Source: Marispirochaeta sp. (GTDB lineage: Bacteria > Spirochaetota > Spirochaetia > JC444 > Marispirochaetaceae). Taken from it: a stretch of 64,000 nt of DNA. Shown here piece by piece: positions 3,762-21,803 of the stretch (positions are counted from its first letter, which is position 1; each line of letters opens with the position of its first letter). The stretch lies in the NCBI GenBank assembly GCA_963676835.2, contig CAXXFF010000001.1:416001-480000 (forward strand), read 5' to 3'. Under the pieces are notes generated by a model. The model had not been told where the DNA came from. It saw only the letters and a list, made by a program, of their open reading frames with translations, and made no database searches. The position numbers and the translations under genes were made by a program.

Positions 3762-4424
3762 TCAGACCAGAAACTGATAGACCGACATCATGGTGCCCAT
3801 AATAATAAACCCCAGGCTCATAAAGCGGAACATCATATCAAAACGTCTGTCCATATTGTGCTGCGTTGATGTAAAACGCTGATCAAGGCTGTGCTGGGTC
3901 TCCTCAAAACGTTTGTCCATCTGTTCAAACCGCTTGTCCATATTCTGCTGCATAGACTCAAAGCGCTTGTCCATATTCTGCTGCATAGACTCAAAGCGCT
4001 TATCCATGTTCAGATGCATAGACTCAAAACGTTTATCCATGTTCAGCTGCATCGCTTCAAAACGATTATCCACCTGTTCAAAGCGCCGTTCCATATTCTG
4101 CTGCATGACTTCGAATCGTTTATCCATACTCTGCTGTATTACTTCGAAACGTTTGTCGACCTGCTCGAAGCGCTTATCTACCTGTTCAAGGCGCTTGTCG
4201 ACCTGTTCAAAGCGATCATCCATCCGCTTGAATCCCTCTTCAATGCGGCCATCGATACGAATAATGGTTTCCCTGAATGCAGCGTGTTCTAAATTGTTCT
4301 GATCTTTCAAAATCATATTCTGTGTGAGCAGGGTAATATAGCGGTGAAGAGAACCTCTATTTTTCACCTCAAAGGCATCTTCCAGTTCGTGTTCCAGCAT
4401 ATCGGCCAGACTATCCATGGTCAT
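3762..4424 (-). CDS. Coiled-coil repeat membrane protein (DKRFE repeats, Bdr-like architecture)
   Basis: 7-aa (DKRFEQV) and 11-aa (MDKRFESMQQN) repeats; hydrophobic C-terminal anchor. Confidence 0.75.
   Translation of the reverse strand: MTMDSLADMLEHELEDAFEVKNRGSLHRYITLLTQNMILKDQNNLEHAAFRETIIRIDGRIEEGFKRMDDRFEQVDKRLEQVDKRFEQVDKRFEVIQQSMDKRFEVMQQNMERRFEQVDNRFEAMQLNMDKRFESMHLNMDKRFESMQQNMDKRFESMQQNMDKRFEQMDKRFEETQHSLDQRFTSTQHNMDRRFDMMFRFMSLGFIIMGTMMSVYQFLV
3840..4230. repeat. Intragenic 33-bp and 21-bp imperfect tandem repeats
   Basis: Unit aaagcgcttgtccatattctgctgcatagactc recurs in tandem and encodes the DKRFE repeats. Confidence 0.85.
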
Positions 4425-7802: not shown

Positions 7803-9245
7803 TTGAAATCTGTACAAAGAATCGGGATAACAGCGCTTATTCTGATAACAGCATTATTCTCTTTTATCTCATGTGATAACGGTTCTGCATCCGGTTCCGG
7901 ATCAACGGGAAGCAGCAGTGACATAACTGCACCTACAGCAGGAAACAGTGGAACTATTTCATTCAGCACTGTTTCTTCAAGTGGCGTGACGGTAAACTGG
8001 ACCGCCGGAAGTGACGATACCAGCGCACAGGCAGACCTCGAATACCTGGTGTACTATTCTACATCCGACAATATTGATACAGCCGCCAACGCAGTATCAA
8101 ACGGTACGGCCGCTGGCAGTTTTTCTGCAAATATCTCCTCAAAAGCGGTCTCCGGCCTTACAGGATCAACCACCTACTACTTTAATGTGCTGGTAAAAGA
8201 TGAGGCTGGAAATACCACTGCGTACACATCCAGTTCTGAGACGACCTCTGCCGCCGGCGACTCTACCGCACCCACTGCTGGAGGTTCAGGTGTATTAAGC
8301 TTTTCTTCAGTGAACAGCAGCAGTTTGACCGTAAACTGGACAGCCGGTACCGACAATGTTACAGCCCAGGCAAATCTGCAGTATCTGGTCTACTATTCTG
8401 CAAGCAACAACATTGCATCTGTGTCAAATGCCGAAACTAACGGTACAGCGGTGGGGAGTTATTCTTCGAACATAACAACAAAAGCGGTTACCGGTCTTTC
8501 TGCAAGTACCACTTATTACTTCAATGTAATTATTAAGGATGAAGCCGGAAATAAAACTGCCTATACAACAAACTCTCAGGCAACATCTGCCGCCGGCGAC
8601 TCTACCGCGCCAACTGCGGGAGGTTCCGGTGTATTAAGCTTTTCCTCAGTGAACAGCAGCGGCTTGACCGTAAACTGGACAGTCGGTACCGACAATGTTA
8701 CAGCCCAGGCAAATCTGCAATATCTGCTCTACTATTCCACAAGCAATAATATTGCCGCTGCATCCACTGCTGAGGCAAACGGCACCGCCGTTGGGGCCTA
8801 TGTCTCAAATATAGCAACGAAGAGTGTTACCGGTCTGTCTGCAAGCACCACCTATTACTTCAATGTAATTGTTAAGGATGAAGCCGGAAATAAAACTGCC
8901 TATAGCACCAACTCACAATCAACAGATTCGGCAGTCGTAACTGCTTATGAAGTTAGCGGCTACGATGAAGCAGGATTGAGCACCCATGGTAATGGAACCT
9001 ATTCCAAGATATCCGACTACAATGGTAAAGTGGCCTACCAGTTTGATAATTCAGCCCTCTATACCAATGAGATATTTACAATTCGGTGGGAAACGCTTAA
9101 TTCCCGATGGGAGATTTATAATTCCAGCTACGACGACTGGGACTACTATAACCTCGATACAGGCGATACACCCCCGACTTCGGGATGGTATAAATGGGGA
9201 GCAGAAAGCAGCCCCGACCTGAACCTAACCTTAACCGCTCAGTAA
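7803..9245 (+). CDS. Lipoprotein with three fibronectin type III repeats
   Basis: RBS AGGAGG then TTG start; lipobox FISC; three 113-aa FN3-like repeats (TVNWTAG...YYFNV.IKDEAGN). Confidence 0.88.
   Translation: MKSVQRIGITALILITALFSFISCDNGSASGSGSTGSSSDITAPTAGNSGTISFSTVSSSGVTVNWTAGSDDTSAQADLEYLVYYSTSDNIDTAANAVSNGTAAGSFSANISSKAVSGLTGSTTYYFNVLVKDEAGNTTAYTSSSETTSAAGDSTAPTAGGSGVLSFSSVNSSSLTVNWTAGTDNVTAQANLQYLVYYSASNNIASVSNAETNGTAVGSYSSNITTKAVTGLSASTTYYFNVIIKDEAGNKTAYTTNSQATSAAGDSTAPTAGGSGVLSFSSVNSSGLTVNWTVGTDNVTAQANLQYLLYYSTSNNIAAASTAEANGTAVGAYVSNIATKSVTGLSASTTYYFNVIVKDEAGNKTAYSTNSQSTDSAVVTAYEVSGYDEAGLSTHGNGTYSKISDYNGKVAYQFDNSALYTNEIFTIRWETLNSRWEIYNSSYDDWDYYNLDTGDTPPTSGWYKWGAESSPDLNLTLTAQ
7920..8936 (+). 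repeat. Three 339-bp intragenic tandem repeats
   Basis: Repeat starts at 7920, 8259 and 8598; copies 2 and 3 share long identical stretches. Confidence 0.85.
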
Positions 9246-9250
9246 AGACT

Positions 9251-9280
9251 AAAAGCTGCCCGGAACCGGGCAGCTTTTTT
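9251..9280. terminator. Rho-independent terminator, likely bidirectional
   Basis: AAAAGCTGCCCGG-AA-CCGGGCAGCTTTTTT between convergent genes. Confidence 0.85.
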
Positions 9281-9407: not shown

Positions 9408-10244
9408 CTACATTCTGAAGCCCGCATCAATGGCCCAGCGGATATTTCCATAGAGATCGAAAACATCGTTCTGAAATCCCTGCTGTGTTTCGGAGTAGAA
9501 GAAATGAGTTTCCGGAATACAGGAGACACCTGCCCGGAATCCGCCGGTATCGATCAGGTTGACTCCGGCACCGACACCAAGCATCATTCCTCCTACACTG
9601 TCGGAGGTTATAACATCCCCGCCGGCATCCAGGGGGTTCCTGAAAGACCAGTACATATAGATTCCCCCGGCCTGAGCCAGCAGATAGGGGGACATAAACT
9701 GAAAATCCGGCAGCGGATAGTAGCGGCCTTCTATCCCGGCCCGGAGAAACAGCACTCCTTCATCAACGGAATCGTAAATTTCGGAAGACTCCTTGGCGGT
9801 AACCGCTTTAACGCCGGCAAACAGAAGCACCTCGATGTTATCTTCCCTGCCGCCGACCAGTACTTCGCCGTCAAAGAGGGAATCAAAATAGGGAGCACTT
9901 CCCCAGGAGTTGCCTCCCCTGAAAAGAAGGTAGAAATCTCCGTTAAAAGGCTCGGAATAATAGACCGCTTCATCCTGGGGGCTGGTGTTGTCCGGAGTAT
10001 GCCGGTCATCATGGCTGTAACCCCTGTCCGGTTCATCCCGGTCATTGGGAACCCGGCGGCTGCCTTTGTGGTCGTCCTCGGCTTTGTCCATGGCGTCACT
10101 TAAGGAGCCTCGGTTATAGGGGGAGGAGGTTGTACAGGAGAAAAGAACCATCGCGACAATAATGGTGAACATAATAAACTTAGAAAGAATGCGCATACTT
10201 TCAAGTATAGTTTTTGTCAGCAGCTTTTGCATATGCTTTATCAA
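9408..10244 (-). CDS. Hypothetical lipoprotein with C-terminal beta-barrel-like region
   Basis: Lipobox VLFSC (true start probably downstream of 10244), disordered linker, amphipathic beta-strands ending DAGFRM. Confidence 0.6.
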   Translation of the reverse strand: MIKHMQKLLTKTILESMRILSKFIMFTIIVAMVLFSCTTSSPYNRGSLSDAMDKAEDDHKGSRRVPNDRDEPDRGYSHDDRHTPDNTSPQDEAVYYSEPFNGDFYLLFRGGNSWGSAPYFDSLFDGEVLVGGREDNIEVLLFAGVKAVTAKESSEIYDSVDEGVLFLRAGIEGRYYPLPDFQFMSPYLLAQAGGIYMYWSFRNPLDAGGDVITSDSVGGMMLGVGAGVNLIDTGGFRAGVSCIPETHFFYSETQQGFQNDVFDLYGNIRWAIDAGFRM

Positions 10245-10260
10245 TGTTTTTACACTATAA

Positions 10261-10290
10261 TAAAATGAGCCGTCTAGGTTGACGGCTCAT
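10261..10290 (-). terminator. Rho-independent terminator
   Basis: ATGAGCCGTC-N6-GACGGCTCAT hairpin followed by a short T-run on the minus strand, just after the stop at 10308. Confidence 0.75.
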
Positions 10291-10307: not shown

Positions 10308-12188
10308 TTACTTACCAAGTCCTGTCGTAAACGAACATGCAGGACTTGTGTATGTAAATAACAACCCTGTTGCGACATAGCGCCATGTATATTGGGTATC
10401 AGTCTGTAATGCCGGATCACTTGCTATAAAAGTATACCCTGAAGTGGTCAAACCTGTTTTAACATCTAACCATGTATGTCCGGATAATACCTGCAACGTG
10501 TATGTGGTTCCTTTTGGTGCACCGGTAGGAGTATTCCAGTCAAATGTTGGTCGTGTTGATACAAATTTAGCATTGGGGACCGGCATCACATCGAATTTAA
10601 TTATTTGAGTAGTATAGTCAGACCAATTATTCCGGGCATCGCGCTCACGTACCCTGAGAAAATTGTAACCGTTTGTGATAGTTAAGGCTGTATAACTCAG
10701 TGCAGTTGTTTCACTGCTCCAACCTGTATCATTATAGTTATACTGATAGTACCCAACTCCACCATTTCCACCAGAAGACCATGTCCAAGTAGGTGTAATA
10801 TCGGTTGTAGGTGTTGTCCCTGAAACCGAAGGTGCGGATGGTGGTGTATCGTCAATATACAAGTAATCAGTTTTATAAGCATAATTACCTGCCAGGTCAA
10901 ATACGTAAGCCCGCGCATACTCATATGAATAATTATGAGAGAAAAAATCCACGGTATGCGTAACAGGCGAGCCACTAACAGCAAGCCGATCTACTGATGA
11001 AGAACCGTAATACCAGCCGTTATCACTGTCGTATACATTATATGTAAGGCTTGTAACGGGGGTAAGATTATCAGTCACAGTGAAATTAAACGGTACCGAG
11101 GTATAGTTTATTGTAGAATATGCTTGTTGAAGTGTTACTGTTGGTGCTGTCGTATCCCAAACAAATGTGAATGAGTCACTTGTACTGTTACCCGCTCTAT
11201 CACGCAGTTCCACGTCCACAGTATACGTACCTTCAGTAGTTGATGAGATATAGCTGTAATAAGAATCAGAAGGGGAAAATGACAGTTCGGGGTCAGAAGA
11301 AGACCATTCGTAATATGCGGCACCGGAATAACTGGTTGGTACTATATACTGACTCGAGTTTTTGTATCTTGTCTCCCCTGCTTCCAATTCTGGCGAAACA
11401 GTATCCAAGGTGATTGTCTTTTCTTCTATCTTTGAGTACCCGGTTGAAAAATCAGGAAGCTCCCCTTTGAATACGGCATAAACTGTTTTTACGCCATCTA
11501 CACTTGTCGAGAAATTGAAGTCGCTGAACGGTGTACCTACAGTATGCCATACACCTGCACTTAATGCCTCTATTTCCCCATCATCATCAATAGAGGTGTA
11601 GTCATCGGTGATATAAAAATAATCTGCGTAGTCGTTATAGAAAGCAACCGAAACATCAACATATGATTCATTTGTATATCCGCTGTCAGCAGCTCCTCCG
11701 CTTGTACTACGATCTATAACTTGAATACTTCCAGCTGGTGCTGTACCAGTTTTAAAGTTCCAGATATAAGCTTCCTGCATTTCACTGCCGTCACTCCCCT
11801 GAATTCCAGAAATCTCAATTGAATAATCGTGACTGTTTTCAAAATATGTATCTGGTCCCGGTTCAATCTTTAGTCGTTTAATGGAGGAATTAAACTCTGG
11901 ATTAATGATAGAAACTGAACTTGAATTAGTCAGATCCGTAATTTCAATAGTCTCGGATGTAACAGAACCAAGACTGATATCCCGATCAAAGTTGATATAA
12001 ATTTCACTTCCAGGATTTATGCCTGTACTATTATCTGCTGGACTGACACTCTCAACCACAAGAAACAGATCATTCGCAACCTTAACCTCAGTCCCCACAG
12101 CCTCAACAAAATCAATGGGCTCTTCGCAGGTGGTAAACAGCAAAACAGCGGTAACAAGGGCTGCAAAAACCAGTACTTTCTTCATCAT
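10308..12188 (-). CDS. Ig-like (Big_5/SbsA-type) domain surface lipoprotein, module 1 partner
   Basis: MMKK...LFTTC lipobox; VSPADNSTGI...FDRDI...WNFKT Ig-like domain; PTWTWSSGG repeat. Start set to 12188, 1 nt after the upstream stop, with RBS GAGGAG. Confidence 0.8.
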   Translation of the reverse strand: MMKKVLVFAALVTAVLLFTTCEEPIDFVEAVGTEVKVANDLFLVVESVSPADNSTGINPGSEIYINFDRDISLGSVTSETIEITDLTNSSSVSIINPEFNSSIKRLKIEPGPDTYFENSHDYSIEISGIQGSDGSEMQEAYIWNFKTGTAPAGSIQVIDRSTSGGAADSGYTNESYVDVSVAFYNDYADYFYITDDYTSIDDDGEIEALSAGVWHTVGTPFSDFNFSTSVDGVKTVYAVFKGELPDFSTGYSKIEEKTITLDTVSPELEAGETRYKNSSQYIVPTSYSGAAYYEWSSSDPELSFSPSDSYYSYISSTTEGTYTVDVELRDRAGNSTSDSFTFVWDTTAPTVTLQQAYSTINYTSVPFNFTVTDNLTPVTSLTYNVYDSDNGWYYGSSSVDRLAVSGSPVTHTVDFFSHNYSYEYARAYVFDLAGNYAYKTDYLYIDDTPPSAPSVSGTTPTTDITPTWTWSSGGNGGVGYYQYNYNDTGWSSETTALSYTALTITNGYNFLRVRERDARNNWSDYTTQIIKFDVMPVPNAKFVSTRPTFDWNTPTGAPKGTTYTLQVLSGHTWLDVKTGLTTSGYTFIASDPALQTDTQYTWRYVATGLLFTYTSPACSFTTGLGK

Positions 12189-12189
12189 C

Positions 12190-14253
12190 CTACTCCTCCT
12201 CATCCCAGCTGGAGACTTCCCGCTTTACCGCGTTGGAAGCTCTTCCCACCGATGTATCGGCAGATCCGAGATAGGCAAACTCCGCGGCCAGCGCGGGATC
12301 AGCTGAATTCAGCTTGTTCATAGCTGAATCAGCCTCGTTATATTTTTCAAGTTCATAACTCGCCCGGGCGACACCTAAAAGAGCCTTGGTATTGTTCGGA
12401 CTTGTCCGGCTTGCCCGGCTGTAAGTTTCCAGCGCCTGTACCATGTTCCCCTGCAGATAGTAGATATTTCCAAGGTTAACCATGGCAGGTACATATTCGG
12501 TCTGATTCAGGATTGCCCGAAACTGCTCGGCAGCTTTATCAAGTACCCCAAACTGGGCGTAGAGAATACCCAGCTTGTTGCGGGCATAGACAGTTTTTCC
12601 CGCCATGGCCATCTGGCCCCGCAACTCGCTTACCCTCGGTTCAATCTGACGGTTTATAAAGGTTACCAGTGCCTTGCGGTAGCGTTCCATAAGGCGGTCT
12701 TCACTGGGAAGAACCACCCCGGCGGTGCCTTCTGCAAAGCCGATGGGTTCGTACAGCTCCCAGGCTTCCCGTACCGGATAAAAGCCGTTGGTTCCGGCCT
12801 CTACAGTCTCCCGCCACTCTTTTGCCCCGATCTGCCAGGATTTAAGGAAACCTTCCCGAACCAGGGTTATCTCAACAGGGAGCCAGGTATCATCTTCGGT
12901 GAGAATCAGGTCCCGCTCATCCAGGAAAAGCCTTTTTGCCTGGGCCGGAGCCATACCAAGGGAGAAAGCCATATAGATATGCCCGGGGGCTGTGATAAAG
13001 GCAGTTTTTATACCTACTGCTTCCAGCAGGGAGGCATAAAGTATGGAAAGATCGTCGCAGTCGCCTGCTTTATATGCCACGGTCTGGCTGGGAAACTGCA
13101 GATAATCCAGGGCTTCTTCGTTTTCGGACAAAGAAGCATAGGGGGTTGAGGGATCCTGCACATATCCCATGCCGTATACCGACAGGGCCTCAAATATGCC
13201 CATAGCAATACGGAACTTCTCATTAATGGCGCTGGAGTTGTCGGAACCGATAGTGGCTGCCACATTCTTGGCAAAGCTTAAAATAAGGGGATCCTTGGCG
13301 GTAACAAAGGCCGCTGCCTTACGGTCATCATCCCAGGTCATGGCATTTCGGTTATTTATGGTTACCGTAACCGGCACAGTCTCACTCATCTCCTTGCCGA
13401 TGTAGGAGTATTCGATGGTTATTTCTCCTGCAGCCTTTGTTCCCTCGGTTACACGGAAGATATTCTCTGCAAACAGGGCGTAGACCGGGACATCAATCGC
13501 TTCCCTGCCCCGGAGAACAGGATACTCTGCACAGACCTTGGGCTGATCCATAAACTGCTTTACAAAAAAACTGACCTTTACATCCTTAATGGGGCCGGAC
13601 TCAAGATTGGTCAGGCTAACCTGTCCTGCGGGATGTTTTTCGTAATAGCTGTAGAACAGGGGAAATATGGGCTGCAGTGTCGGCATATACTGAAGTTCCG
13701 CACCTTTGGAGGAGCCGCCGATCTGGTAACGCATTCCAAGGCCGATACTGATGCCCTGAAGAGCCGATTCCGTACTGGTAAGGTAGTCACGATAATCTGC
13801 TTCAAGGCTGAGGCTCAGGCCCGGATTCAGTTTGTAGGCTGCATAGGCTGCTCCGCCGTAGAAGGGATCCCGGATGGAACCTTCATCGATAATGCCCATA
13901 TAGAGCCCGCCGAAGCCTTTCAGGCCCAGATTCAGGCGGGAGAGAGGTGCATACTGAACTCCCAGGCTGGGACCAAGGGCGACAAAGGTTGCAGACCGGT
14001 CCGAGCCGTTGATGGGCATAATAGAAACATCCATCATGAGCCCTGAGGTAAGAAAATCGAGCTTGCCCGGAGTGTAGGAGCCTTCCAGGTTTATGCCCCC
14101 CCCGGTGGAATAGAAAACCGGTCCGCCGTCAACTTCCGGCCCCAGAGGAACCGTAACTGAAGGCCTGGCAGTCAGATGCATGGAGCCGGACTGGGCATAT
14201 ATAGTCAAAGTTAAACAGATTATAATTAGTGCAGAAAGGGCAGTTTTTTTCAT
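12190..14253 (-). CDS. Signal peptide + OM beta-barrel-like + transglutaminase-like + TPR protein (module 1)
   Basis: Amphipathic strands ending GMRYQIG; GDCDDLSILYASLL, PGHIY, WLPVEIT; C-terminal TPRs (NLGNIYY). Confidence 0.78.
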   Translation of the reverse strand: MKKTALSALIIICLTLTIYAQSGSMHLTARPSVTVPLGPEVDGGPVFYSTGGGINLEGSYTPGKLDFLTSGLMMDVSIMPINGSDRSATFVALGPSLGVQYAPLSRLNLGLKGFGGLYMGIIDEGSIRDPFYGGAAYAAYKLNPGLSLSLEADYRDYLTSTESALQGISIGLGMRYQIGGSSKGAELQYMPTLQPIFPLFYSYYEKHPAGQVSLTNLESGPIKDVKVSFFVKQFMDQPKVCAEYPVLRGREAIDVPVYALFAENIFRVTEGTKAAGEITIEYSYIGKEMSETVPVTVTINNRNAMTWDDDRKAAAFVTAKDPLILSFAKNVAATIGSDNSSAINEKFRIAMGIFEALSVYGMGYVQDPSTPYASLSENEEALDYLQFPSQTVAYKAGDCDDLSILYASLLEAVGIKTAFITAPGHIYMAFSLGMAPAQAKRLFLDERDLILTEDDTWLPVEITLVREGFLKSWQIGAKEWRETVEAGTNGFYPVREAWELYEPIGFAEGTAGVVLPSEDRLMERYRKALVTFINRQIEPRVSELRGQMAMAGKTVYARNKLGILYAQFGVLDKAAEQFRAILNQTEYVPAMVNLGNIYYLQGNMVQALETYSRASRTSPNNTKALLGVARASYELEKYNEADSAMNKLNSADPALAAEFAYLGSADTSVGRASNAVKREVSSWDEEE

Positions 14254-14473
14254 GGCAAAAACCTCTTAAGAATACCTCTTAAATATATCACATGCTGAAC
14301 AAAAGCGCAGGTTCTTCGCACACTGCAGGTATTACACTGTTAATGTACCAAAAAACAGTACTCATTACTATGAGAAAGAGGGTCTGCAGGAAAGAAAAGG
14401 TACGGAAACATGTTAAATTTCCGTCTGCCGCAGAAGAAGGCTATCCTTCTCTGCTGCAGACGGAATATGAAAA

Positions 14474-17400
14474 TCAGAAATCATCCATACGGGCTACCAG
14501 GTTAATGAAAAACACCTGGCCGTACTGGTAGGTAGTAGCCGATGTGAATCCACGTCCGGGAACATCATAGTAGCCGAACTGGAGGAACCTTCCCTGACGG
14601 ACCGTCGGAAAGTAGGTTGAATAGTTGTTGTCCGCCGAGTAGACCACGCCGTCGGTTACAGATGTTGGATCAGAGAGGTATACACCATAACGATAAACAT
14701 CCCCGGTGGTAGTATTGAAGATATTACTCAGATTGACGTCACTGTTGTAGAAGTAGGTCTCAAGATAGGTATTCCGCATAGGAGAATACCAGATGCTTTC
14801 CGAGGTGGATGCAGCTCTTGTCTTGATGGATTTGTTGGAACCGATGCCGGCACTCTCTCCCCGTCCAATCTGGGTAGGTGCTGTGCCGGATAGTCCCCAG
14901 CTGCTCCAGTTGATCTCAATCCTGTCCAGGAGAGAGCCGCCGTTGTAGCCCATGGCGATAAGTCCGCGGCCGTTGGCTGCGATATGCCTGGATTTAATAT
15001 CGTAAGTGGTATCACCGTAGGTGAATGTTGAGCCCGGGGTTACGATTACAGGATCACCGTAGATGATATTATTGGTTGAATAGCTTGAGTTGTTGATCAG
15101 ATCCTCAGGCAGCATGGTTACGGTGTAGGTCGGCATGGTTCCCGCCATATTGGCCTGACTCAGGATTCCGCCGGACCAGTAGGTATCTTCCAGAAGTTCC
15201 TTGATGTACTGGGCAATAAGAATATCCTTGGACTCGTTATCGTCATATACAACCGTAACATTTGAGCTGAAGCCCATAACGTTTGTGGCACTGTAGGGTC
15301 CATAACCGCCGGTGTCTGCATTATAGGCCCGGACGAAGAAGTAGCGGATCTCACCTTTGGGAATGGAAACCAGATGATAGCTTGTTGAGGTAGTGTAACC
15401 TTCGTAGGTAACACTGTCGCCGTTATTGGGATCCGCATTCGGGTCTGTGGTGGAATAGGTATAATACCTGGTGGTATTGGCACCTGCATCTTCAGTAACA
15501 TCCGAAGAATAGACCCTGCTGTAACCGCTGGAGTAGTAGCTCTTGTCAGCATACTGGGGTACCGGAACCTGAAGATAGATTGAGTCTGACAGATAGGCGT
15601 AGTTTCCCGCTTCATCATATACCGTTGTATAGGTGTACTTGGTACCAGGGCTTATAGAGAACTGGAAATCAGAGTCCATAAGTGCAGCATAGGTGCGGTA
15701 ATCACTCCAGCCGCCTCCGCCGGTGCTGTAATAGTCGTAGGTACTTACCTGCAGATTTGTGACACTGGTCAGGTTATCACTTACGTTGAGGTTGAGCTTG
15801 TAGGAGAGTGACGGAGTATAGGTTGCGCCGTTATTGACTGAATAGGTTCCTGTTGGTGCAGTTGTATCAAGTATGATTGAATCATTCCGGTAGGACGATC
15901 CGTTCCCTGCTTCATCTACAAGCTGAGCATAGACATACTTGGTTCCGTCACCGTTGTCGTATTTCAGTTCCGTGGAAATAGTCATGGTACCGTCGGTTTC
16001 AAAGGGTGAGCCGTAGGTTTCGTAAGCGGAAGCCGGGTTGTAATCCAGATAGCGCAGGGTTACATCTTCATTCTCGGCACTGATATCTCCGGTAATATCA
16101 ACGTATACGCTTGTGTTATTGGTATGGGAGTTATCTGTATCCAGAGCAAAGTTTGACGGATCCCTTATCAGCACACTGGTAAGAACCGGAGCGATTGTAT
16201 CGACAGTTATACGGTGGCTGGCAGTTGCAGACCAGTTACCAGCCTCATCACGCTCCTGTACTTCAAGCAGATAAGTGCCGTCTGCTTTATATGGTGTATA
16301 ACTTGTTCCGGTGCCGCTGTTCCAGCCTCCTCCGTCGATTCTGTACTGGAAAACTCCGTTTCCGCCGCCGCCGGAAGTCCAGCTCCAGGTTGGATAGTGA
16401 TCGTTGGTTGCGGTTCGATCAGAATCACCCGTGGTATTTCCCTCTCCGGAGAGATCCGGTCTTCCGGGGTCTGTTGTATCGATGGTGATGGTATGAGTTG
16501 CCTGCTTTTCTGTCTGCCAACCAAGGTTGTAGTACTCTTCAATTGTCAGAGAATGTACACCGTCTGAAGTATCGGCAAGGGTGAATACCGTTGGATCTCC
16601 CGGATCATTACTCAGGGAACTGTAAACAGTATCATACCAGGAATCACCGCCATTCCAGGAATAACGATACCTTTCTGCTATTCCGCCGGAGCCGGTGAGC
16701 ACATGCCATGTCATGGTCGCTACTGTCCGCAAAGCGGGATATACATCCCCGATAGAAATTTCAGGCGGAGATGTCTGAGATAAATCGATCAAGGTCTCAG
16801 AAGTCCCTGCAACAGACCAGTTATCGGCGGAATCCAACTCCTGGACCTCAAGCCTGTATGTAATCAGGTTATCGAGAGGATCATCAACTGTGGGTGTAAA
16901 GCTTAAAGAGCTTGTTTCTGTCCAGTCATATGCCGCAACAACCTGATCATCTGTAACATTATAGAGTCTGTACCGGTAGGTTCCGATACCGCCGCCTCCG
17001 CTTGACCAGTACCAGGTTGGCCGTACGTTGGGAGTAACTTCAGGTCCGGATACAGTCGGAGTTCCCGGGAGAGTTACATCACGGTACAGTGTCAGGTTGG
17101 CTTCCGACTGGTTACCGGCAGAATCAGCAACGGTAAGTGTTATTCCGTAGGTACCATCTGTGGTGGCGCTAACACTGGTAACAGGAAGATCTTCATTTGA
17201 GAAGCTTACGTTAGCCGGAGCAGTCCAGGTATAGGTCGCAATTCCCGTACCCCCGGTATCGGTAACAGTGCCATCGGGGCCGGCATCAAAGTCAATAGTT
17301 ATGGAAGGGGCAGCATAGTTGGCTGTGTATCCATAGTTATTCACAGTAATTACCGGTGGAATGGTATCTATGGTAACCGCCACCGGTGTTGCTTCGCTGT

Positions 17401-19705
17401 AGTTATCTGCATAGTCATAGGCTCGCAGATAGAGTGAATGGCTGCCGTCTGCCAGTGCGGTATTGGGCGAGTATTCAGCTACTGTTATGTCCACATATGT
17501 GGAGAAGTTATCAAAACTGACCCGGTAAAAATCGGCCCCGCCGGTTTCATCCCAGCTCCACAAAGGCTGTGCGTCTGTAGAGTAGCCCGGCTGTGACTGT
17601 TCCACCGTAAATCCTGTTATGGCATCCGGCGGGTTCTGATCCAGGGTAACCGACACAAGATCAGTTGCGGAGTTACCCGCCGGATCTGTTGCGGTTACGG
17701 TCAGGTAATAAGTACCTTCCGCGGTCATATAAACCCAGGGCTCTTCTATGGCGGTTCCGTTGTTCTGGGTAGTAGAACCAGAACTGAGGTTGAAGTAAAG
17801 ATCTCCGGGGCCGCTGATAAACGCCCAGCTGTATTCGGCTATACCATTAATCTCGGTAATCTCATAATAGTCTGATCCTGTGCCTCCCTGAAGCATTTGA
17901 AATTCATCGTTTTCCAGAAAATCATCTTCAGCAAAGGCAACTGCAGGATCTATTCTGTCGAGGATAATGGAGTCAGTACCGGGCTGAGCCGCGGCGTTTT
18001 CGAGGTAATCCCGAACCCAGATAGAAATAGTGTATGAATCATCGATATCGGGCAGTTCCCATTCGTCTATAGAGGGAACCCAGTCGATCCAGCCGGTGTC
18101 AGTTGTTCCATCGCTTACCCGCATCTCTTTCAGGCCCGTATGGGTATCTGCAGAAGTAAACTGCAAATTGATTTTCCGGGCGGTATCATTCAGATAATCA
18201 CCTTCAAGTATAGTTACCGTTGGATTGGCCGGAGCTTCACCGTCAAGAAAAACCTTTATCTGGCCTGCAGAAGGAGATTCATTTCCCGCGCTGTCAACAA
18301 ACTTGTAAAGGATAAATTTGGACCCTGCACTGGTTGAAACATTCCAGTCCCGCACAGGATCAGCCCCGGTGGGAAAGGCTTCCCAGGCGGCGTTGGATTC
18401 AAAAGCTTCTTCTGTTCCGTCACTGTCGCCCCAGAATTTCATTCCCCAGACTGTATTGTAGTCATCGGTAATATCAGAAAGATCCAGGCGTATGCGGTAA
18501 TCGTTGGTGGCTACAGCACCGGTGGGCAATGTTGTAACGATAGAGTTGACCGGGTCCCCATCAAGGGTGGACAGGGGAGTCAGGGAAATGGTTCCGGAAG
18601 GAGCTGTTGTATCGGTGGAATCTCCGGTATAAAAGTACCATACAGATTCATCGCCGCCGATGGGATTCCCGGATATATCTTCAACGCTGTTTCCGAGAAC
18701 AACCTTGTACTGGGTATTTGGCTCCAGTTCAAGCCCCCAGAGGTTTGCAGCGGAACCGGGCTTGTCATTAGCTTCGATAAGACTGATTACCCCGGGAATT
18801 TTAGATGAGTCTGATATTCGCTCTGCATAATAGTTGGTGGAATCAAAACTGGTGGAAGCCATCTCATCATCAAAGGTGATGGTCAGGGTTGTGCCGTTAT
18901 AGGGATAGGTATCTGTGTCGTCCCAGTTAACATCAATAACTGCAGGGGGCGTCAAGTCATATATGATTTCCGCAGTTCCCGGATCAGAAATTACTCCGTC
19001 AGAGTCCCGCACTTCGACTACATAGGATGCAGATTCACCGTTGGCAATACCGCTTATATCGAGGTCCTCAACACTTGCAAGCCCGTCGGTAAGGGTAGTC
19101 CACTCCGACCAGTCCACAGCAGCTTCCGCTTTATAGCGGTAATTGAGTCCTGCAGTATAGCTGTCGCTGTCTGTAGCGGAAATATCAAGGTCAACCAGGG
19201 TTGTGTTCGTCGCACTTTGCCCGCCATTCAGGCGTATGTACTTTATTACCGGTTTAATACTCGCAGGAGCCTCTTCCGTGGAAAAAGTCCATGAGTACTG
19301 GTCCACCAGGCTGTTGCCGTCCTCATCATGGATACCGGAGGTTGCGGTTATGGTAAAACTGGTTCCGTAGGCAAGGGCGGAACTGGGGTTAAAGGCAATG
19401 GTATCGTTACTCACTGAGAAACTGCCGGAAACTGTCTCGTCATCGGCGTTTTTTACAATAAAGCTTGAGCCGTTTACACTGGAAGACTTTATCGCTTTGG
19501 TAAAGGAGAGGAGAATATTATCTATGTCCACGGGAATGCTTGTATCACCGTCTTCGGGATACATTGAAACAATCGAAGGCGGTGTTACAACAATTTCCAC
19601 CTCCTCTTCGATTTTATTCACCAGATCATTGGGACATCCCGCAAAGAAGGCAATTACAACAACAGCAGTTAACAGCAGCGGACGATGCAGCATATTCCTT
19701 ACCAT
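14474..19705 (-). CDS. Giant Ig-like repeat surface lipoprotein (~1740 aa), module 2 partner
   Basis: Lipobox FAGC; N-terminal Big_5-like domains; many D..AGN beta-sandwich repeats; PTW.W.SGGGG repeats. Start set to ATG 19705 (RBS GGGAG), 10 nt after the upstream stop. Confidence 0.82.
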   Translation of the reverse strand: MVRNMLHRPLLLTAVVVIAFFAGCPNDLVNKIEEEVEIVVTPPSIVSMYPEDGDTSIPVDIDNILLSFTKAIKSSSVNGSSFIVKNADDETVSGSFSVSNDTIAFNPSSALAYGTSFTITATSGIHDEDGNSLVDQYSWTFSTEEAPASIKPVIKYIRLNGGQSATNTTLVDLDISATDSDSYTAGLNYRYKAEAAVDWSEWTTLTDGLASVEDLDISGIANGESASYVVEVRDSDGVISDPGTAEIIYDLTPPAVIDVNWDDTDTYPYNGTTLTITFDDEMASTSFDSTNYYAERISDSSKIPGVISLIEANDKPGSAANLWGLELEPNTQYKVVLGNSVEDISGNPIGGDESVWYFYTGDSTDTTAPSGTISLTPLSTLDGDPVNSIVTTLPTGAVATNDYRIRLDLSDITDDYNTVWGMKFWGDSDGTEEAFESNAAWEAFPTGADPVRDWNVSTSAGSKFILYKFVDSAGNESPSAGQIKVFLDGEAPANPTVTILEGDYLNDTARKINLQFTSADTHTGLKEMRVSDGTTDTGWIDWVPSIDEWELPDIDDSYTISIWVRDYLENAAAQPGTDSIILDRIDPAVAFAEDDFLENDEFQMLQGGTGSDYYEITEINGIAEYSWAFISGPGDLYFNLSSGSTTQNNGTAIEEPWVYMTAEGTYYLTVTATDPAGNSATDLVSVTLDQNPPDAITGFTVEQSQPGYSTDAQPLWSWDETGGADFYRVSFDNFSTYVDITVAEYSPNTALADGSHSLYLRAYDYADNYSEATPVAVTIDTIPPVITVNNYGYTANYAAPSITIDFDAGPDGTVTDTGGTGIATYTWTAPANVSFSNEDLPVTSVSATTDGTYGITLTVADSAGNQSEANLTLYRDVTLPGTPTVSGPEVTPNVRPTWYWSSGGGGIGTYRYRLYNVTDDQVVAAYDWTETSSLSFTPTVDDPLDNLITYRLEVQELDSADNWSVAGTSETLIDLSQTSPPEISIGDVYPALRTVATMTWHVLTGSGGIAERYRYSWNGGDSWYDTVYSSLSNDPGDPTVFTLADTSDGVHSLTIEEYYNLGWQTEKQATHTITIDTTDPGRPDLSGEGNTTGDSDRTATNDHYPTWSWTSGGGGNGVFQYRIDGGGWNSGTGTSYTPYKADGTYLLEVQERDEAGNWSATASHRITVDTIAPVLTSVLIRDPSNFALDTDNSHTNNTSVYVDITGDISAENEDVTLRYLDYNPASAYETYGSPFETDGTMTISTELKYDNGDGTKYVYAQLVDEAGNGSSYRNDSIILDTTAPTGTYSVNNGATYTPSLSYKLNLNVSDNLTSVTNLQVSTYDYYSTGGGGWSDYRTYAALMDSDFQFSISPGTKYTYTTVYDEAGNYAYLSDSIYLQVPVPQYADKSYYSSGYSRVYSSDVTEDAGANTTRYYTYSTTDPNADPNNGDSVTYEGYTTSTSYHLVSIPKGEIRYFFVRAYNADTGGYGPYSATNVMGFSSNVTVVYDDNESKDILIAQYIKELLEDTYWSGGILSQANMAGTMPTYTVTMLPEDLINNSSYSTNNIIYGDPVIVTPGSTFTYGDTTYDIKSRHIAANGRGLIAMGYNGGSLLDRIEINWSSWGLSGTAPTQIGRGESAGIGSNKSIKTRAASTSESIWYSPMRNTYLETYFYNSDVNLSNIFNTTTGDVYRYGVYLSDPTSVTDGVVYSADNNYSTYFPTVRQGRFLQFGYYDVPGRGFTSATTYQYGQVFFINLVARMDDF

Positions 19706-19715
19706 CTCTTTCTCC

Positions 19716-21803
19716 CTACTCTTCAGACCAGAAGGTTGCGCCCTTGGCATCCGCTGCAGCGGCCCGGCCGACATAACTTGATTCGGGACTCAGGTAGGCA
19801 TATTCCGCTGCAAGGGCAGGTTCTATCTCTTTCAACTTGAAATAACTCTCTTCTGCTTCCTGGAAGCTCTCCAGTTCATACTGCGTCCGTGCCACCGAGG
19901 CGACTACAGCAGAATTGTGAGGGTCAATCTGTTCGGCCTTTTTGTAATACCTGAGTGCCCCGGGATGATCCTCATTCAGATAATAGATATTCCCCAGATT
20001 GACCAGGGGAGAAAGGTATGATGCATCCATCTGAATTGCACGGTTAAACTGGGTCTTTGCCTGATCATACAAACCGTAGCGGGCATAGAGCACACCAAAC
20101 TGATTCCGGATACGGGAGCTGTCGCCGCCGGAAGATATACGGTCCTGAAAAAGCTGTACCTTGGGCTGAATCTCCCGCTGTATAAACAGTTCCAGATTTT
20201 CTTCGTAATTTGTAAGGATAGTCTCTTTGGAAGGAAACACCAGTGAAAGGGCGGATCCGGGAATGGCCACCGGCTCATAGGTCTGCCATGCTTCATGAAC
20301 GGGATATATGGCGGCACTGTTCCGGGTGGTATTATCTCTCCACTCTTTGGCGCCGATCTTCCATGCCTTGAGAAAACCATCGGGTATCATGGTTATTTCC
20401 ACGGGAACCCAGGTGTTGTCATCCAGAAAAAGAAAATCATCGACATTGGAAAACAGATTCCTGGCCTGGGCCTCATTCATATCCAGAGAAAAGGCCATGA
20501 AGATATGCCCGGGGACGGTGATAAATGCCGTCGGGATTCCCACAGATTCAAGCAGACTGGAATAGAGGATGGAAAGATCATCACAGTCCCCTGCCCGGTA
20601 GGTCAAAGACTGAGCGGGAAACTGCAGGTAGTCGATAAACTGATCGTTCTTTATGGCCTCTACATAACTTGACTGAGGATCGATTACATAGTTCATGCCG
20701 TAAAGCCTGAGGGTCTCAAAGAGGCCCATGGCGATGCGGAAGTTCAGGTTGATGGGGTTGGTTCCCTGTTCCCGGATAATACCTGCTGTATTTTTGGCAA
20801 ACAGCAGCACCGTTGAATCCTTTGCATTAACAAACGAGGCCGCCTTGCGGTCATCATCCCACATCATGGAGTTACGATCATATATTCTCAAGGTATAGGG
20901 CGTAGTGGAGGAAAACCTTTCTCCCAGATAGGTGTATTCCGTTATGATACTGGCAGAAACCTTGGTACTTTCGGTGAGCTGCATTACGCTGTTGGTAAAA
21001 AGAGCCTTCAGAGCAACTTCTGCAGACTCTCCCCTCTTGAGAAGAGGAATTTCACCGCTCAGCTTGGGCTCTTCCATGTACTGGTTTACATTGAGATAAA
21101 CCTTAACATCGCTGATTGAACTGTTTTCACCGTTTACAATGTTAATGGTGCCCACAGCGTTATTATCGTAATAGCCGTAAAAAACCGGAAAAATGGGGTC
21201 GAACTCTATGTCCTTTACTTTGATACGGCTGCGGTTATCCCGGGTGTTCAGATGAAAGACTGTCCCCAGGGTAAAACGAGCTCCCTGATAGAGATCGGTA
21301 TAGGATCCATTTGCAGAATCATACCCGAGGTAGTAGCGGTATCCGCCTCCTGCGGTCAGGGTAAAACCGGGGGTAAAATCCCAGGACAGATAGAGATTAC
21401 CTCCACCATAGGGGTTGGAACTGATATCCGAGTCGGGGTACATACCGATGTACCAACCGAGCTCTCCACCCAGAGACAGGCCAAGGGCGTCCCCCGCTCT
21501 CAGGGTAAGACCGCTTTCAAGTCCGGCGGAAACAATCGACAGGGTTTCAGCCTGGGTGGGCAGAAAGCTGTAGCCTGCATTTCCGCCATAGTAGAAACTG
21601 GTCAGATCGGGAGGGGTGTATTGAAGATTGAGGGTTGCAGAACCGCCGGCAGTATAAAGGGCATCCTCGTTGAAGACAGCACTTTTAGAGCCCATGGGGA
21701 GTTCAAACCCGGGACGAATTATAATACTGACATTGTCTGACTGGGAAAAAAGAAGACCGGAAAAACCGGCGACAAGCAACAGGATAATGATATTCTTTTT
21801 CAT
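19716..21803 (-). CDS. Signal peptide + OM beta-barrel-like + transglutaminase-like + TPR protein (module 2)
   Basis: Paralog of 12190-14253: WDDDRKAA.FV, DYLQFP, GDCDDLSILYSSLL, PGHIF, WVPVEIT, TPRs. Confidence 0.78.
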   Translation of the reverse strand: MKKNIIILLLVAGFSGLLFSQSDNVSIIIRPGFELPMGSKSAVFNEDALYTAGGSATLNLQYTPPDLTSFYYGGNAGYSFLPTQAETLSIVSAGLESGLTLRAGDALGLSLGGELGWYIGMYPDSDISSNPYGGGNLYLSWDFTPGFTLTAGGGYRYYLGYDSANGSYTDLYQGARFTLGTVFHLNTRDNRSRIKVKDIEFDPIFPVFYGYYDNNAVGTINIVNGENSSISDVKVYLNVNQYMEEPKLSGEIPLLKRGESAEVALKALFTNSVMQLTESTKVSASIITEYTYLGERFSSTTPYTLRIYDRNSMMWDDDRKAASFVNAKDSTVLLFAKNTAGIIREQGTNPINLNFRIAMGLFETLRLYGMNYVIDPQSSYVEAIKNDQFIDYLQFPAQSLTYRAGDCDDLSILYSSLLESVGIPTAFITVPGHIFMAFSLDMNEAQARNLFSNVDDFLFLDDNTWVPVEITMIPDGFLKAWKIGAKEWRDNTTRNSAAIYPVHEAWQTYEPVAIPGSALSLVFPSKETILTNYEENLELFIQREIQPKVQLFQDRISSGGDSSRIRNQFGVLYARYGLYDQAKTQFNRAIQMDASYLSPLVNLGNIYYLNEDHPGALRYYKKAEQIDPHNSAVVASVARTQYELESFQEAEESYFKLKEIEPALAAEYAYLSPESSYVGRAAAADAKGATFWSEE

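Follow-up and report, generated by a model that had tools for sequence, protein, structure and literature searches.

In outer-membrane proteins of the OmpA class the short-turn side of the barrel and the C-terminal body are periplasmic, and the long loops are extracellular. Eight-stranded barrels such as OmpA, NspA and PagL have no protein-sized channel, and the wall-binding domain of OmpA ties it to the wall without catalysis. Slam proteins combine N-terminal tetratricopeptide repeats (TPRs) with a larger C-terminal barrel that translocates cargo. In the Bacteroidota secretion system of type IX (T9SS), PorP/SprF barrels hold proteins with type B C-terminal domains (CTDs) non-covalently above PorE, according to the available passages of PMC9143113. 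LapG (BTLCP) is described in excerpts of PMC3032545 and PMC4359373 as a periplasmic enzyme of transglutaminase fold with a Cys-His-Asp triad, which cleaves an adhesin at an Ala-Ala site. Here we describe a cassette of two genes, encoding a barrel-enzyme and a lipoprotein, that occurs twice in a 64,000-nucleotide (nt) stretch of Marispirochaeta sp. (GCA_963676835.2, contig CAXXFF010000001.1, positions 416,001-480,000 of the forward strand), called the window below.

The principle of a barrel that holds a surface protein is already known. As far as the T9SS excerpts describe it, the cassette works most like the PorP/SprF barrels above PorE but is not a member of that system. Both have a cognate outer-membrane barrel holding one surface protein with a periplasmic partner beneath; here an eight-stranded barrel holds, in the model, a lipoprotein cargo by its N-terminal helix, and the periplasmic part is fused to the barrel and carries a putative triad. 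The window proteins have no PorP/PorV-family NCBIfam match, and the conserved element of the lipoprotein is N-terminal, not a C-terminal signal. The cassette is real, widespread in spirochaetes and undescribed within the literature searched. No paper on it was found in a search outside supplements and most subscription papers, and the cassette could be listed in the supplement to a comparative study; the passages available of PMC10318531, PMC7159879 and PMC13692018 do not mention the barrel-enzyme family.

We give slightly better than an even chance to the reading that the cassette is a surface dock whose enzyme has some other substrate in the periplasm, the wall being the likeliest. The first-pass annotation of the window had proposed a surface display or anchoring system. 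This is the best reading, and the barrel, the conserved lipoprotein link and the transglutaminase fold hold up.

In a phylum-wide sample of 401 Spirochaetota genomes, 49 have the enzyme core, which forms 1881 clusters at 50% identity (core E under 1e-30). Named relatives of the barrel-enzymes are spirochaetes. The locus set, 100 regions around most strong matches and 85 contig loci (one contig scan, giving 5 loci, ran from a single query sequence), holds 217 open reading frames (ORFs) with the core. A survey of gene neighbourhoods upholds the proposed linkage to lipoproteins: one directly follows 97 of 124 active barrel copies away from contig edges, compared with 36 of 470 background long ORFs in the same loci, counts from which duplicates, fragments and contig-edge copies were removed and which are not independent, since the loci are search matches that include kin. 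The median gap is -13 nt, and 4 of the other 27 barrel copies have a lipoprotein under a relaxed filter or upstream.

Active copies without the barrel have WD40, TPR, laminin-G, beta-helix or PorV-family N-termini and keep the triad. Initial scoring placed a lipoprotein behind 4 of 37; three of the 37, with the barrel split off or cut, were removed, and none of the remaining 34 has a lipoprotein within 100 nt. The near-misses among the 34 are one unrelated lipoprotein at 129 nt and two short doubtful ORFs at 170 nt, and one of these copies sits behind a complete barrel cassette. On the core tree (FastTree, midpoint root, with many barrel-loss copies from one family) at least five barrel losses fall inside lipoprotein-linked clades, and with the barrel went the lipoprotein link. 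Judged from this gene content, the lipoprotein partner belongs to the barrel and not to the enzyme, because the link disappears wherever the barrel is lost and none of the 34 barrel-less copies is coupled.

The four ORFs of the two cassettes are confirmed on the minus strand and span 10308..21803. Their parts are as follows.

19716..21803, minus strand: barrel-enzyme 1 (P0001, 695 residues), with signal peptide, predicted eight-stranded barrel, Ig domain, core and TPRs
21252..21731, minus strand: eight-stranded outer-membrane barrel of copy 1 (residues 25-184), from the structure model
Residues 47-49, 83-88, 120-130 and 160-171 of copy 1: modelled docking loops of the barrel, from the complex model
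20883..21224, minus strand: Ig-like beta-sandwich of copy 1 (residues 194-307)
20274..20876, minus strand: transglutaminase-like catalytic core of copy 1 (residues 310-510)
20585-20583, 20507-20505 and 20399-20397, minus strand: codons of the putative triad of copy 1, C407, H433 and E469, respectively
19803..20117, minus strand: TPR helices of copy 1 (residues 563-667)
C-terminal end of the 19716..21803 ORF, minus strand: tail of barrel-enzyme 1, with a conserved RA...W-x-EE motif
14474..19705, minus strand, ATG at 19705: lipoprotein 1 (precursor 1743 residues, mature 1720), with lipobox, tether helix, two Big_5 domains, Big_13 and PKD-type Ig repeats
19586..19636, minus strand: start of mature lipoprotein 1 (residues 1-17), with the lipid cysteine and the amphipathic tether helix that binds the barrel in the model
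14254..14473, no strand: spacer of 220 nt between the cassettes
12190..14253, minus strand: barrel-enzyme 2 (P0002, 687 residues; C399, H425, E461), architecture as copy 1
10308..12188, minus strand, ATG at 12188: lipoprotein 2 (precursor 626 residues, mature 606), with lipobox, tether helix, Big_5 and further Ig-like repeats
12078..12128, minus strand: lipid cysteine and tether helix of lipoprotein 2
10265..10290, minus strand: terminator-like hairpin 3' of lipoprotein 2, a consensus match only, with a site count not above that of shuffles

The first-pass annotation gave the lipoproteins as about 630 and 1740 residues long, within 1-10 nt of the enzyme genes; the gaps are 10 nt in cassette 1 and 1 nt in cassette 2. 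The GDCDD...PGH...PVE motifs and C-terminal TPRs that it described are likewise present in the window enzymes.

The AlphaFold2 model of enzyme 1 was built with 120 sequences and has a mean predicted local distance difference test (pLDDT) score of 88.8. It comprises eight strands (residues 25-184), a beta-sandwich (194-307), an alpha/beta core (310-510), a long helix and TPRs. The closest structural matches of the barrel are NspA (Z 18.6, root mean square deviation (rmsd) 2.2, 150 aligned), PagL and OmpW (both Z 16) and OprF; structural Z against the OmpA, NspA, PagL and OmpW class ranges from 15.6 to 18.8. The strands alternate in hydrophobicity, three short turns on one side are nearly fixed in length (standard deviation 0.1 for turns 2 and 3), and the four opposite loops are variable (2.8-3.4). 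Eight amphipathic strands with short turns on one side and variable loops on the other are what defines an OmpA-type barrel, and in the model the N-terminus is an eight-stranded outer-membrane barrel of this type, as had been proposed from the window alone. It is probably not a pore. The likeness to OmpA, NspA, PagL and OmpW lies in the barrel fold and, for OmpA and OprF, in a C-terminal periplasmic domain. The cassette protein differs in that an enzyme with TPRs takes the periplasmic place of the OmpA_C wall-binding domain, and in that the barrel's loops are modelled to hold a lipoprotein.

Mature enzyme 1 was modelled in complex with the N-terminal 126 residues of mature lipoprotein 1, alongside three controls. 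The complex scored 0.62 (runs 0.58-0.63), and the best of the three controls scored 0.00; the score mark, reached by 116 of 157 solved pairs and 2 of 215 mismatched pairs, is rough here, own alignments having been used. Contact agreement between runs is at least 79% and the pLDDT of the partner at least 86. Every confident contact joins partner residues 1-17 to barrel residues 47-49, 83-88, 120-130 and 160-171 (loops 1-4), on the barrel face opposite the catalytic body. The model supports binding, and the tether helix probably docks on the variable outer loops of its cognate barrel.

The partners are otherwise varied. Their bodies range from 166 to 1882 residues among 67 complete ones, and Pfam finds Big_5, Big_13 and PKD-type Ig domains in those of the window. 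Both window lipoproteins, whose lipoboxes are FAGC and FTTC, do start with a Big_5 domain as first noted (first domain E 1.4e-25 and 6.8e-10, Pfam), but this start is not constant across the family: 34 of 97 partner N-termini match a helix-plus-Big_5 profile strongly, and Big_5 was rejected as the defining feature. The common element is an amphipathic helix after the lipid cysteine, with consensus C-x-N-P-L-L-D-x-I-E-x-E-V. A simple pattern for this tether is found in 65 of the 97 partners compared with 22 of 216 candidate lipoproteins of the Marispirochaeta sp. genome. When a tether profile was made from which this genome's partners and their orthologues in G002 were left out, the genome's three partners took the top three places among the 216. 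Tether subtypes track enzyme clades, and the two window copies fall in different ones.

The two window enzymes are, by sequence, old paralogues. They share 40% identity overall, 24% in the barrel and 80% (40 of 50 residues) at positions 391-440 around the active site, which bears out the divergent barrel of the first description and replaces its near-identical active site with a measured value. On the core tree each copy belongs to a well-supported clade of its own, and the partner type differs between the two clades. Congeners have one cassette at the window site, G002 cassette 1 only and G001 and G005 cassette 2 only. Both units of the tandem module first described are real; a recent tandem duplication is rejected, because the clades and partner types are separate and the congeners hold one cassette each, with protein identity of 40% and best DNA segments of about 72%. 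Contig C2 carries a third, more distant copy, which overlaps the beginning of a further lipoprotein gene. A second lipoprotein, with LVIVD repeats, comes after the partner of this third copy (L001:12996-16508).

Barrel-like genes also stand alone beside lipoprotein genes in the Marispirochaeta sp. genome itself (G000; C1:294164-294808, C4:20804-21445, C4:24340-24939 and C3:688318-689361), and the lipoprotein following the C3:688318 gene carries a tether-like helix. The barrel-lipoprotein pairing may extend beyond the barrel-enzyme family.

Folded alone, the core has a pLDDT of 92.6. Its fold matches, with moderate and tied Z values, are the putative protease 3kd4 (Z 10.9, rmsd 3.0, 133 aligned), PNGase (9.0), 3isr (8.9), TglA (8.7) and LapG (8.7). 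The model has a transglutaminase-fold layout, in which C407 starts helix 407-420, H433 starts strand 433-439 and E469 comes right after strand 463-468. These three residues are invariant in 120 of 120 homologues, all three motifs are kept in 141 of 148 representative matches, and D375 and D391 are invariant in 396 sequences. By its predicted fold the core is a member of the transglutaminase-like superfamily with a putative Cys-His-Glu triad. The transglutaminase-like Cys-His-acid core of the first-pass annotation stands in its fold and invariant Cys and His, and the acid is Glu, not the Asp of LapG. Pfam finds TPRs in the window enzymes and a weak Transglut_core match (E 5e-4, under the cut-off), and sequence searches found no solved relative of the core or of the partner pair. 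Co-variation in the 396 sequences pairs TPR residues 603-606 with the lid next to the active site, residues 380-393 (Y380-I606, rank 9, and L393-L603), and gave nothing clear for contacts of the C-terminal tail. An explanation of the W-x-EE tail as a mere ribosome-binding-site code was rejected: barrel-less copies keep the tail (Trp in 30 of 33) and there is no enrichment of GAG codons.

Two described proteins invite comparison with this core. With LapG, as far as the excerpts describe it, the enzyme shares a periplasmic transglutaminase fold, a Cys-His-acid triad, acidic residues around the cysteine and a gene beside a large Ig-repeat surface protein; D391, D406, D408 and D409, a candidate calcium site next to the cysteine, align weakly with the D-Y...GDC-D segment of LapG (E 0.27). 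By this analogy the enzyme is probably calcium-dependent. It differs from LapG in having Glu as third residue in all 120 homologues, in being membrane-anchored and multi-domain, and in its partner, a lipoprotein with neither an Ala-Ala site nor a modelled enzyme contact. The score against the LapG family NF045674 is 15.8 bits (cut-off 320). PF06035 (Peptidase_C93) has no match in the genome, and its control matched; the LapD profile PF16448 has no match in the genome and none in any control genome either.

Prometheus ProA is an anti-phage DUF4011/DUF3320 protein of about 1900 residues, cytoplasmic, with a nuclease and further domains, in the available passages of PMC13700489, which do not call its N-terminal domain a transglutaminase fold. 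The N-terminal 300 residues of proteins of this type contain an Ig domain and a core of transglutaminase fold that retains Cys, His and Glu, and the Ig-plus-core unit of the cassette is homologous to them (hhalign probability 97%, E 2.7e-11, 256 columns). The window enzymes match positions 11-291 of NCBIfam NF058533 (ProA) with E 4.5e-9 and 1e-9. They reach 34-36 bits against full-length ProA (cut-off 1500) and have no PADLOC match. ProA differs in lacking the acidic residues around the cysteine, and none of its other domains occurs in the cassette enzyme. The comparison copy is L212:229-1545 (NZ_CP018231.1, a named plasmid); ProA loci from relatives were without the N-terminal region.

Relatives with additional or altered parts bear on the side of the membrane. 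A C-terminal extension past the tail is present in 17 of 246 barrel-type proteins. Nine of these extensions are a low-complexity linker followed by a hydrophobic helix with a basic end (L089:7044-10175, L092:3922-8901, L094:6676-10281, L096:7000-9456; P0182, P0243, P0244, P0247, P0267), and two carry a LysM-like domain (E 4e-4 and 6e-4, just under the cut-off). Because relatives end in a putative inner-membrane helix or LysM, these sequences indicate that the enzyme body is periplasmic, near the wall or the inner membrane. The linker-helix forms may be single chains spanning from outer to inner membrane.

A separate clade lacks the catalytic cysteine, and 14 of 17 such dead copies lie directly upstream of an active copy (L034, L050, L089, L092-L094, L096-L099, L101, L104, L106, L107). 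TPR loss in the active member of several such pairs suggests a heterodimer of dead and active paralogues. Other arrangements include a dead barrel-enzyme fused to a seven-transmembrane (7TM) sensor region and LuxR (L062:5482-8649), and two copies flagged inactive that flank a CHASE2 adenylate cyclase gene (L111:3698-10335). At L112:5110-7482 and L126:9419-11761 the enzyme body is joined to a barrel of the PorV/PorQ family, and the gene directly follows one for a large FG-GAP protein, which in one case has a FlgD-type Ig end; in contrast to T9SS, barrels of that family occur here only in these two distant relatives. Some neighbours had a FecR-like look, which Pfam did not confirm.

The favoured reading, a surface dock with an enzyme that acts elsewhere in the periplasm, would work as follows. 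The 690-residue protein would place its OmpA-type barrel in the outer membrane and its Ig-enzyme-TPR body in the periplasm, as modelled. The co-translated lipoprotein would reach the outer leaflet by a general route and not through the barrel, for example by LptD-dependent flipping as described for Borrelia in the part available of bioRxiv 10.1101/2022.12.21.521298, and by analogy would be exposed at the cell surface. Its tether helix would lie across the extracellular mouth of the cognate barrel, as in the complex model and in keeping with the gene-tree pattern, so that the docked barrel holds and orients an interchangeable Ig-repeat stalk, 166-1882 residues long or longer. The last step is the weakest. 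The Cys-His-Glu domain, probably calcium-dependent, would act on a periplasmic substrate other than the partner; the best guess is the cell wall, with a peptidoglycan stem peptide cut or transamidated. The surface protein would be tied to the wall in this way, or room would be made for it there.

Several observations weigh against this. The docking comes from a single model of a single pair. Barrel-tether mutual information, from an alignment of about 72 effective sequences, gives no signal (5 of the 30 top pairs in outer loops, 27% expected), and tether similarity follows the barrel no more closely (rho 0.19) than it follows the Ig domain (0.23) or the core (0.16). No adjacent lipoprotein is found for 23 of the 124 barrel copies. 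As to the wall, LysM is present in only two closely related proteins of one genome, and the Ig-core unit is most closely related to the N-terminus of ProA, a protein of the cytoplasm, a compartment without wall.

The family bears on how spirochaetes hold and orient surface lipoproteins and tie their loosely attached outer membrane inward. It offers a short candidate recognition code, made up of a small barrel and a helix of 17 residues, and a first handle on an undescribed transglutaminase-fold enzyme common to the N-terminus of anti-phage ProA. Should it prove portable, the helix-barrel pair would make a compact tool for surface display. A bolder form of the dock, possible but doubtful, is a new envelope-spanning anchoring class in which a helix-barrel code is combined with a calcium-dependent transamidase that would fix the complex covalently to peptidoglycan (or a C-terminal helix that would fix it to the inner membrane), with dead paralogues as regulators or structural partners.

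The same docking and topology evidence could serve outside-in signalling, which we consider unlikely. The docked lipoprotein would be a sensor whose binding activates a periplasmic cysteine protease that cuts or releases an inner-membrane regulator. The LuxR fusion and the copies flanking the cyclase gene fit this, as do the co-variation of the TPRs with the lid beside the active site and the placing of dead paralogues directly upstream of active copies, where regulators often are. However, these signalling contexts mostly involve copies that lack a lipoprotein partner, no signalling gene is common to the varied upstream neighbours of the 97 linked copies, and the HD-domain gene beside the window locus is divergent and seen in congeners only.

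Processing of the partner, the view of the first-pass annotation that the enzyme cleaves or cross-links its own lipoprotein, is weakened, because the tether is modelled across the membrane from the active site and the link follows the barrel. Cleavage, acylation or cross-linking, as in LapG-like shedding or sortase-like anchoring, would have to act in the periplasm before export, or on a lipoprotein that stays periplasmic, the complex model then being wrong. A single enzyme for each lipoprotein, the two genes overlapping or abutting, would suit it, as would the LapG fold match with its aligned segment and the PorV-type versions behind large secreted proteins, which resemble the T9SS sortase layout. 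Yet barrel-less enzymes retain the triad and have no partner, and a LapG-type T/P-A-A-G site occurs in the first 120 residues of 1 of the 97 partners. A conserved Gln is absent from the helix region (Gln in 34% of the 97 partners, 41% of the 216 genome lipoproteins); Lys is commoner there than in the background (71% against 49%) without a fixed position, and a Gln/Lys cross-linking tag was rejected. The enzyme probably does not cut its partner, and we consider processing of any of these kinds improbable.

A dedicated porter, Slam-like or autotransporter-like, moving the lipoprotein across the outer membrane is highly improbable, since the barrel has only eight strands, although a TPR and barrel protein beside a cognate surface lipoprotein is also the gene layout of Slam (type XI secretion) and two relatives have a weak, merely generic TPR_Slam match; the domain order, with N-terminal eight-stranded barrel and C-terminal TPRs, is the reverse of Slam, SlipAM has no Pfam match in the window proteins, and a SlipAM search of the genome, in which nothing matched, was uninformative.

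Other genes of the window lie close by. Directly downstream of lipoprotein 2, the gene at 9408-10244 (minus strand) encodes a protein with a lipobox-like signal and a C-terminal region resembling an outer-membrane barrel; it has no Pfam family, and its orthologue is at L027:16754-17530. A fibronectin type III repeat lipoprotein gene at 7803-9245 (plus strand) is convergent on the locus and ends at a two-way terminator-like hairpin (9251-9278). The gene at 3762-4424 (minus strand) encodes a short protein of tandem DKRFEQ-like heptad repeats.

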